Assembly: GCF_051903065.1 (NCBI RefSeq)
Contig: NZ_CP178440.1
Reading direction: 5' to 3' (one strand)
DNA from: Escherichia coli
GTDB taxonomy: Bacteria > Pseudomonadota > Gammaproteobacteria > Enterobacterales > Enterobacteriaceae
DNA: 64,000 nucleotides
Shown: positions 120 through 2,184 of the stretch, piece after piece
Layout: each line of letters opens with the position of its first letter
Numbering within the stretch: position 1 is the stretch's first letter
The notes under the pieces: model-generated
Seen by the model: only the letters and a program-made list of their open reading frames with translations
Databases searched by the model: none
Told to the model about the DNA's origin: nothing
Program-made: the position numbers and the translations under genes

Positions 120-995
120 TTACAAACCGTCGGTGACGATTTTAGCCGCCGACGCTAATACATCGCGACGGCTTTCTGCCTTAGGTTGAGGCTGGGTGAA
201 GTAAGTGACCAGAATCAGCGGCGCACGATCTTTTGGCCAGATCACCGCGATATCGTTGGTGGTGCCATAGCCACCGCTGCCGGTTTTATCCCCCACAACC
301 CAGGAAGCAGGCAGTCCAGCCTGAATGCTCGCTGCACCGGTGGTATTGCCTTTCATCCATGTCACCAGCTGCGCCCGTTGGCTGTCGCCCAATGCTTTAC
401 CCAGCGTCAGATTCCGCAGAGTTTGCGCCATTGCCCGAGGTGAAGTGGTATCACGCGGATCGCCCGGAATGGCGGTGTTTAACGTCGGCTCGGTACGGTC
501 GAGACGGAACGTTTCGTCTCCCAGCTGTCGGGCGAACGCGGTGACGCTAGCCGGGCCGCCAACGTGAGCAATCAGCTTATTCATCGCCACGTTATCGCTG
601 TACTGTAGCGCGGCCGCGCTAAGCTCAGCCAGTGACATCGTCCCATTGACGTGCTTTTCCGCAATCGGATTATAGTTAACAAGGTCAGATTTTTTGATCT
701 CAACTCGCTGATTTAACAGATTCGGTTCGCTTTCACTTTTCTTCAGCACCGCGGCCACGGCCATCACTTTACTGGTGCTGCACATCGCAAAGCGCTCATC
801 AGCACGATAAAGTATTTGCGAATTATCTGCTGTGTTAATCAATGCCACACCCAGTCTGCCTCCCGACTGCCGCTCTAATTCGGCAAGTTTTTGCTGTACG
901 TCCGCCGTTTGCGCATACAGCGGCACACTTCCTAACAACAGCGTGACGGTTGCCGTCGCCATCAGCGTGAACTGGCGCAGTGATTTTTTAACCAT
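120..995 (-). CDS. blaCTX-M-55: Class A extended-spectrum beta-lactamase, CTX-M-1 group; matches CTX-M-15 as I recall it except Ala to Val in the KVMAVAAV stretch, which is the CTX-M-55 signature
   Basis: 291-aa ORF with STSK active-site motif, SDN, KTG and the [12 protein letters not shown] (D240G-type) segment; allele call is from memory and needs alignment. Confidence 0.85.
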
Positions 996-1122
996 GGGAT
1001 TCCTTATTCTGGAAGAGACGAAATAACAACAACATGAATAGTCAATATTTTACCTGAAGCGAGCCACAACGCGTCCGATTTTATGCTTCCGAAAGGCAAA
1101 TACGGACGTCGCCAGAATGAAA

Positions 1123-1364
1123 CCTAAATTCCACGTGTGTTTTTTATTAGCTTCAAAAATCACTATTTCACGAAGAATTTAGACTGCTTCTCACACATTG
1201 TAACATTATTTACAACCACCTTTCAATCATTTTTGATAAATCATTGATTTCATCTTTGCTGCAATGATACTTAATAAACTCTGCAAGTTATCCACAGAGC
1301 AACACTCAATTTTATTGATGATATTCTTATTATACCAGACATTTTTCATACACTCCCTTGTACG
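1123..1364 (-). mobile_element. Truncated ISEcp1 right end (IRR cctaaattccacgt at 1123-1136) supplying the outward promoter for bla; 127-bp spacer (996-1122) to the bla start; cut at 1364/1365 by IS26
   Basis: IRR motif read directly; spacer length counted from coordinates; 127-bp spacer is a known CTX-M-3/55 configuration. Confidence 0.75.
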
Positions 1365-2184
1365 GGCACTGTTGCAAAGTTAGCGATGAGGCAGCCTTTT
1401 GTCTTATTCAAAGGCCTTACATTTCAAAAACTCTGCTTACCAGGCGCATTTCGCCCAGGGGATCACCATAATAAAATGCTGAGGCCTGGCCTTTGCGTAG
1501 TGCACGCATCACCTCAATACCTTTGATGGTGGCGTAAGCCGTCTTCATGGATTTAAATCCCAGCGTGGCGTTGATTATCCGTTTCAGTTTGCCATGATCG
1601 CATTCAATCACGTTGTTCCGGTACTTAATCTGTCGGTGTTCAACGTCAGACGGGCACCGGCCTTCGCGTTTGAGCAGAGCAAGCGCGCGACCATAGGCGG
1701 GCGCTTTATCCGTGTTGATGAATCGCGGGATCTGCCACTTCTTCACGTTGTTGAGGATTTTACCCAGAAACCGGTATGCAGCTTTGCTGTTACGACGGGA
1801 GGAGAGATAAAAATCGACAGTGCGGCCCCGGCTGTCGACGGCCCGGTACAGATACGCCCAGCGGCCATTGACCTTCACGTAGGTTTCATCCATGTGCCAC
1901 GGGCAAAGATCGGAAGGGTTACGCCAGTACCAGCGCAGCCGTTTTTCCATTTCAGGCGCATAACGCTGAACCCAGCGGTAAATCGTGGAGTGATCGACAT
2001 TCACTCCGCGTTCAGCCAGCATCTCCTGCAGCTCACGGTAACTGATGCCGTATTTGCAGTACCAGCGTACGGCCCACAGAATGATGTCACGCTGAAAATG
2101 CCGGCCTTTGAATGGGTTCATGTGCAGCTCCATCAGCAAAAGGGGATGATAAGTTTATCACCACCGACTATTTGCAACAGTGCC
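1365..2184 (-). mobile_element. IS26 copy 1 (820 bp), 14-bp terminal inverted repeats ggcactgttgcaaa / tttgcaacagtgcc
   Basis: Exact terminal repeats at both ends; internal ORF is Tnp26; flanking 8-mers cttgtacg and tctcaaaa differ, so no target site duplication. Confidence 0.95.
1417..2121 (-). CDS. tnpA: IS26 transposase (DDE, IS6 family)
   Basis: ORF translation [31 protein letters not shown]... identical in all three IS26 copies; ORF-track start lies 6 codons upstream of the usual Met. Confidence 0.95.

Follow-up and report, generated by a model that had tools for sequence, protein, structure and literature searches.

A blaCTX-M-55 gene that lies 127 bp downstream of a 243-bp, IS26-truncated fragment of ISEcp1 and 46 bp from wbuC has been reported (PMC10783052), and the same bracket has also been published in PMC11895021. 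Brackets of this type are found on F-type (IncFII/IncFIA) and other plasmids (PMC10783052). Upstream of bla, spacer classes of 45, 48 and 127 bp are documented, the 127-bp spacer being the published configuration of blaCTX-M-3 (PMC4541600). In the review literature, the 127-bp spacer is also listed upstream of some blaCTX-M-15 genes, and reviews have already taken the three spacer classes to mean several origins. For ISEcp1 sequence identical to that analysed here, promoter P1 was mapped by primer extension, which gave its two hexamers and a start at a G that is 6 nt past the -10 element (PMC4541600). For a gene with a 48-bp spacer, the distance from the mapped start is 116 nt (PMC4541600). 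A weaker second promoter, P2, is placed within the 127-bp spacer in the same paper, where it is cited from Ma 2011. With respect to mobility, IS6/IS26 compound structures that function are without exception flanked by direct repeats, and a translocatable unit needs a directly oriented IS26 pair (PMC7986276, PMC8722046).

The stretch of DNA analysed here (64 kb, referred to as the window) begins with the same 127-bp, 243-bp and 46-bp layout as given in PMC10783052. The first-pass annotation had called this a described arrangement, and rightly so: the module is already known and published and holds nothing mechanistically new. We are highly confident that it is what remains of an ISEcp1 capture unit, now fossilised and carried by a conjugative F-type plasmid, and that blaCTX-M-55 is expressed from the right end of an ISEcp1 that was cut by IS26. 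What is added are refinements, namely the identity of the IS as IS26-v1, the presence of P2 in the spacer, the inverted orientation of the upstream IS26 in most relatives, and a counterpart that carries CTX-M-3. The module is clinically and epidemiologically relevant, CTX-M-55 being an ESBL that is widespread and comes with raised ceftazidime MICs. The coordinates of the first-pass annotation are right to the base, a resemblance by chance can be excluded for these features, and no observation speaks against the anatomy. The features of the module, in the order of their positions, are as follows.

1..73, plus strand: 3' end of wbuC (orf477), coding for a cupin-fold protein, convergent with bla and continuing past the window start (PGAP annotation of 100%-identical relatives)
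81..118, minus strand: hairpin and T-run directly 3' of the bla stop codon, in the gap between bla and wbuC (ViennaRNA fold)
120..995, minus strand: blaCTX-M-55, 291 codons plus stop (ORF listing, profile score, nucleotide identity)
996..1122, minus strand: 127-bp spacer between the IRR and the bla ATG, which is at 995 (direct count)
1006-1002, minus strand: Shine-Dalgarno sequence AAGGA in the spacer (direct read)
1045-1040 and 1023-1018, minus strand: P2 hexamers TTGACT and TTTCGT (found in the spacer; published P2 elements)
1123..1364, minus strand: ISEcp1 remnant, the final 242 bp of the 1656-bp element (exact match to a complete ISEcp1)
1136-1123, minus strand: ISEcp1 IRR, ACGTGGAATTTAGG (direct read)
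1197..1226, minus strand: ISEcp1 promoter P1, TTGAAA-N18-TACAAT with a TG-extended -10 element (promoter scan and published mapping)
1364-1330, minus strand: last 35 bp of ISEcp1 tnpA (comparison with a complete ISEcp1)
1365..2184, minus strand: IS26-v1 (IS15DI type), 820 bp, with perfect 14-bp terminal inverted repeats (repeat search, profile, comparison)
2121..1417, minus strand: tnp26, coding for a single IS6-family DDE transposase of 234 aa, Tnp26 G184N (ORF and profile)
2185..2267, no strand given: IS1 terminal fragment, presumably 83 bp, cut by IS26 (PGAP annotation of a 100%-identical relative)

By nucleotide comparison, the allele is exactly CTX-M-55, a class A ESBL of the CTX-M-1 group. 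The first-pass annotation had named it blaCTX-M-55-like and had left it to an alignment with reference alleles to decide; a chromosomal gene annotated as CTX-M-55 (WP_015387340.1) shows mismatches at 0 of 876 nt, and no other allele emerged. With the NCBIfam blaCTX-M model NF033089 (cut-off 570 bits), the product reaches 626.8 bits, and positions 1-291 of 291 are covered. Many plasmids of E. coli, Klebsiella and Salmonella match window positions 1-3000 at 100% identity, and the gene that they carry there is called blaCTX-M-55 (WP_015387340.1) by PGAP and AMRFinderPlus, by the latter also at 100% identity. The best match among solved structures is the full-length PDB chain 5t66_A, the sole difference being A80V in precursor numbering, which corresponds to Ambler A77V. 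We take this chain, which is labelled only as "Beta-lactamase" in the table, to be CTX-M-15. From the product of a CTX-M-3 gene (OZ026790.1), two residues differ, A80V and D242G in precursor numbering (Ambler A77V and D240G). Going by these alignments, the product is CTX-M-3 with D240G and A77V or, equally, CTX-M-15 with A77V. On the other side of the bla stop codon, wbuC ends with a TAA at 71-73, which leaves a gap of 46 bp between the two genes.

Phenotype and mechanism can be transferred from the literature. D240G would raise the activity against ceftazidime, and A77V would lift the ceftazidime MIC further, reportedly through stability of the D240G enzyme and not through a direct change of the active site. 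When A77V was put into CTX-M-15 by mutagenesis, the ceftazidime MIC went from 2 µg/ml to values of 4 to 12 µg/ml (PMC2809773). A later clinical paper credits the effect of A77V to a stabilised D240G enzyme, citing Patel 2015 and He 2015 (PMC13071274). It is fair wording to say, as had been done, that the A-to-V change relative to CTX-M-15 is associated with enhanced ceftazidime hydrolysis.

The ISEcp1 remnant is identical to positions 3001-3242 of a comparison locus that holds a complete ISEcp1 of 1656 bp at 1587..3242 (locus L002; IRL CCTAGATTCTACGT at 1587, end of tnpA at 3035). The BLAST match runs one ambiguous base longer (243 bp, to 1365). This base is common to the IS26 end, which accounts for the figure of 243 bp in the literature. 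The left 1414 bp of the element are missing, with IS26 in their place. When the complete ISEcp1 was compared by BLAST with the whole 64-kb window, nothing was found beyond 1123-1365, neither an IRL nor an intact tnpA. The locus thus has the right end with the IRR and the outward promoter, but not the IRL and the intact tnpA that are needed for mobilising adjacent DNA. Because the IRL is absent and only the final 35 bp of tnpA are left, ISEcp1-mediated movement is no longer possible. Three statements of the first-pass annotation are borne out by this: that the right end of ISEcp1 lies 127 bp from the bla start (the IRR, correctly assigned, ends at 1123), that IS26 has removed the rest of ISEcp1, no other segment of which occurs within the 64 kb, and that bla can no longer move by ISEcp1 transposition. 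The 48-bp form of the spacer corresponds to the final 48 bp of the 127-bp spacer, with one base different.

IS26 accounts for six repeat matches in the window, with 0.02 expected by chance, and Tnp26 scores 278.2 bits against the IS6-family model NF033587 (cut-off 125). The copy adjoining the remnant differs at three nucleotides (613, 614 and 744) from the upstream IS26 in a relative (L001; WP_001067855.1), which was taken as standard IS26, and this results in G184N. The variant has been described as IS26-v1 (PMC9412624, PMC9019673). As these two papers relate from Pong et al. 2019, it is more active and forms cointegrates more frequently. All three IS26-v1 copies in the window (1365-2184, 15592-16411 and 19922-20741) are identical to each other, copy 1 being inverted with respect to copies 2 and 3, and an 8-bp target-site duplication is found in 0 of 3. 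Direct or reverse-complement matches among the 8-bp flanks of the three copies, which would be signs of IS26-mediated inversion, were not found.

The copy at 1365..2184 is flanked by CTTGTACG on one side and TCTCAAAA on the other, so that an 8-bp target-site duplication is lacking. Because there is no duplication and IS1 DNA lies on the far side, this is not a simple insertion and points to later IS26-mediated deletion or recombination. The absent duplication is a mark of history and not a criterion for being IS26. In a relative with 100% identity, PGAP annotates "IS1 family transposase, incomplete" at the position that matches the IS1 fragment; we assume an extent of 83 bp (2185-2267) from the IS1 terminal sequence matched to the window. 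Next to the IS1 end comes the 3' part of an AlbA_2/Schlafen-like ORF, which ends at 2765. The region 2185-2765 is a layered record, with an IS1 insertion followed by IS26 events.

For the module itself, we infer the following order of events. ISEcp1 would first have captured a Kluyvera-type bla together with 127 bp of upstream DNA, a spacer of the class that belongs to the CTX-M-3 lineage. IS26 would then have entered ISEcp1, and a later deletion or recombination mediated by IS26 would have taken 1414 bp from the left, and with them the IRL and tnpA. The residue would be the 242 bp that carry the IRR and the outward-facing P1.

A 151-bp query that spans the junction of IS26 and ISEcp1 is covered to at least 80% in 628 PLSDB records, about 260-380 of which are estimated to be exact (from ranks in the spread listing). 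The exact junction, together with the 127-bp spacer, can serve as a lineage marker for tracing the module across plasmids and hosts. Three kinds of relatives are informative. The first is represented by pCTXM55_020023 (NZ_CP025949.1), with the order IS26, truncated blaTEM, wbuC, blaCTX-M-55, truncated ISEcp1, IS26. It has 100% identity to window positions 1-3000, a stretch that runs from the end of wbuC through bla, its spacer, the 242/243-bp ISEcp1 fragment and IS26-v1 to the IS1 fragment and the point of entry into the backbone. Compared to plasmids of this type, the plasmid analysed here is more divergent in its leading region (88-97% identity) and has an additional insert bounded by IS26. 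The second kind comprises p628-CTXM and the chromosome of E. coli EC32 (NZ_CP085619.1), which carry ISEcp1-blaCTX-M-55-orf477 with a 48-bp spacer. Their bla is identical, and so is the right end of ISEcp1 over 242 bp, with P1. However, they have the whole 1656-bp ISEcp1 with IRL and tnpA and are still transposable, which the remnant in the window is not, and their 48-bp spacer is devoid of the P2 -35 element and differs at one base. The third is pN12CTX-TC-COL-1 (OZ026790.1), which carries blaCTX-M-3. Junctions, spacer and flanks are the same, and 2997 of 3000 nt match. The three differences are at window positions 271 (D240G), 757 (A77V) and 1726 (inside IS26).

The CTX-M-3 counterpart, its 127-bp spacer and the occurrence of CTX-M-55 behind shorter spacers too are in line with an allele that evolved from CTX-M-3 in place and originated more than once. 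It is about as likely as not that D240G and A77V turned CTX-M-3 into CTX-M-55 within the finished bracket, independently of the CTX-M-55 with a 48-bp spacer, and that the plasmid is a recombinant F plasmid with three identical IS26-v1 copies. If this is true, "CTX-M-55" is a convergent allele that has arisen more than once. In principle, the CTX-M-3 bracket could also be a revertant or a recombinant.

According to another explanation, which is possible but doubtful, the usual CTX-M-15 lineage gave rise to blaCTX-M-55 through A77V, and the gene came to lie behind the 127-bp spacer later. This would be in line with the single difference, A77V, from chain 5t66_A, which we take as CTX-M-15. CTX-M-55 does occur behind 45-bp and 48-bp spacers too (spread listing and literature), and the identical bla nucleotide sequence is found behind the 48-bp spacer with a complete ISEcp1. 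The 48-bp class is the one found with blaCTX-M-15 in the spread listing. The 127-bp spacer, however, is the published configuration of blaCTX-M-3 (PMC4541600), and the same IS26-bounded bracket exists with a blaCTX-M-3 that differs from bla only at the codons for D240G and A77V. In addition, the 48-bp spacer is one base off the matching part of the 127-bp spacer, and the several origins that reviews draw from the spacer classes also argue against this explanation.

The window begins inside wbuC, so that the upstream IS26 was inspected in nine relatives only, one by one. Seven CTX-M-55 plasmids with the same junction and the same backbone position have the order IS26, truncated blaTEM, wbuC, bla, truncated ISEcp1, IS26-v1, and their IS26 pair is inverted. 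The CTX-M-3 plasmid has the same layout, also with an inverted pair. The nearest upstream IS26 is thus inverted in eight of the nine sampled relatives and direct in one; in the eight, it is 2-3 nt off the IS26-v1 at the junction. The exception is pECF12 (NZ_KY865322.1), where an IS26 in the same orientation adjoins wbuC, resulting in a 3.3-kb IS26-wbuC-blaCTX-M-55-ISEcp1 remnant-IS26 structure. In two other relatives, a direct IS26 is found farther upstream, past fosA3 or other DNA. Counts of inverted and direct bracket types by whole-bracket BLAST in PLSDB (290 and 610 records, at least 80% coverage) were dropped as unclean, because IS26 is multicopy, same-strand pieces are joined, and brackets with CTX-M-15 or CTX-M-3 also match.

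The pair is inverted in the common form and a direct orientation is required, so the common form is not excisable as it stands. The bla segment is therefore unlikely to be an IS26 pseudo-compound transposon, which would have a direct IS26 just upstream, be excised as a translocatable unit and reinsert beside another IS26. Precisely such a direct IS26 next to wbuC is present in pECF12, the direct copies farther upstream in the two relatives would permit a larger unit, and the adjacent IS26 belongs to the G184N variant with its higher reported activity. These points are set against the inverted nearest copy in eight of nine sampled relatives (the seven CTX-M-55 plasmids and the CTX-M-3 plasmid) and against the direct repeats that always bound functional IS6/IS26 compound structures (PMC7986276, PMC8722046). 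The other two IS26 copies of the window are inverted with respect to copy 1 and are on the wrong side of bla.

Window positions 39001-64000 match, at 100% identity, the transfer region of plasmids that have been typed conjugative (MOBF/MPF_F). This identity and the inverted IS26 pair of the common form make conjugation the likeliest route of spread, as far as can be judged from sequence, with whole-plasmid cointegrates formed by IS26-v1 probably second. The unit would spread with the plasmid by conjugation and without ISEcp1 transposition; IS26-v1 cointegrates or, given a direct upstream IS26, excision as a translocatable unit may contribute. The first-pass annotation had made further movement depend on IS26. 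This is too simple, since an F-type transfer region is present and the nearest upstream IS26 is inverted in eight of nine sampled relatives. For modelling the spread, it should be noted that IS26 is inverted in most relatives and that the adjacent IS is the G184N variant.

With respect to transcription, P1 is the top promoter-like site of the scan, with 10 of 12 matches. From P1, transcription is predicted to start with the G at 1190. The distance to the bla ATG is 195 nt, the sum of the 116 nt found with the 48-bp spacer and 79. A weaker start from P2 would be expected at about 1011. The P2 hexamers in the spacer are 16 nt apart by our own count, compared to the N18 written in PMC4541600. The 48-bp spacer form begins inside the P2 -35 element and thus lacks it. 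Transferring the published experiments on identical sequence, bla would be transcribed constitutively from P1, with an added weaker input from P2. That bla is locked to the ISEcp1 promoter, as had been proposed, agrees with the complete P1 in the remnant but leaves out the weaker P2 in the 127-bp spacer.

Downstream of bla, a ViennaRNA fold of window positions 125..70 (minus strand) gave a stem of 17 pairs with -23.0 kcal/mol, followed by TTTTTGTTT. The hairpin at 81-118 was revealed by this direct fold, a generic terminator scan having given no call for it. In this model, it is likely an intrinsic terminator, and the bla transcript probably stops there, past the stop codon. A hybrid promoter from the IS26 end, in place of ISEcp1, is very improbable as the driver of bla and was rejected: in its favour, IS26 has an outward -35-like hexamer at its ends and is known to form hybrid promoters elsewhere, but here 369 bp separate the IS26 end from the ATG, the complete P1, experimentally mapped in identical sequence, sits between the two, and at the IS26 junction the scan gave no promoter-like site that was better.

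The remainder of the plasmid was compared with typical F-type plasmids carrying CTX-M-55. Positions 1-3000 are 100% identical, as are positions 39001-64000. The region 1-13449 aligns at 97.3% overall, and that from about 13.4 to 26 kb at 88-93%. The identity drop across about 3000-26000, which is the maintenance and leading region, suggests a recombinant backbone. Among the best-scoring PLSDB records, none covers 80% of window positions 15000-21500, and none is a full-length match for positions 1-25000. A direct pair of IS26-v1 (15592-20741) bounds a 3.5-kb segment with the following genes.

17047-17670, plus strand: ParA-like ATPase, within the segment bounded by IS26-v1
18285-19793, minus strand: YadA-like trimeric autotransporter adhesin, 502 aa, within the same segment

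This segment splits a ParB-like gene of the leading region, and about 96 bp of backbone are absent there. The cargo of the 15592-20741 segment alone also occurs in NZ_CP058715.1 (E. coli, pangolin).
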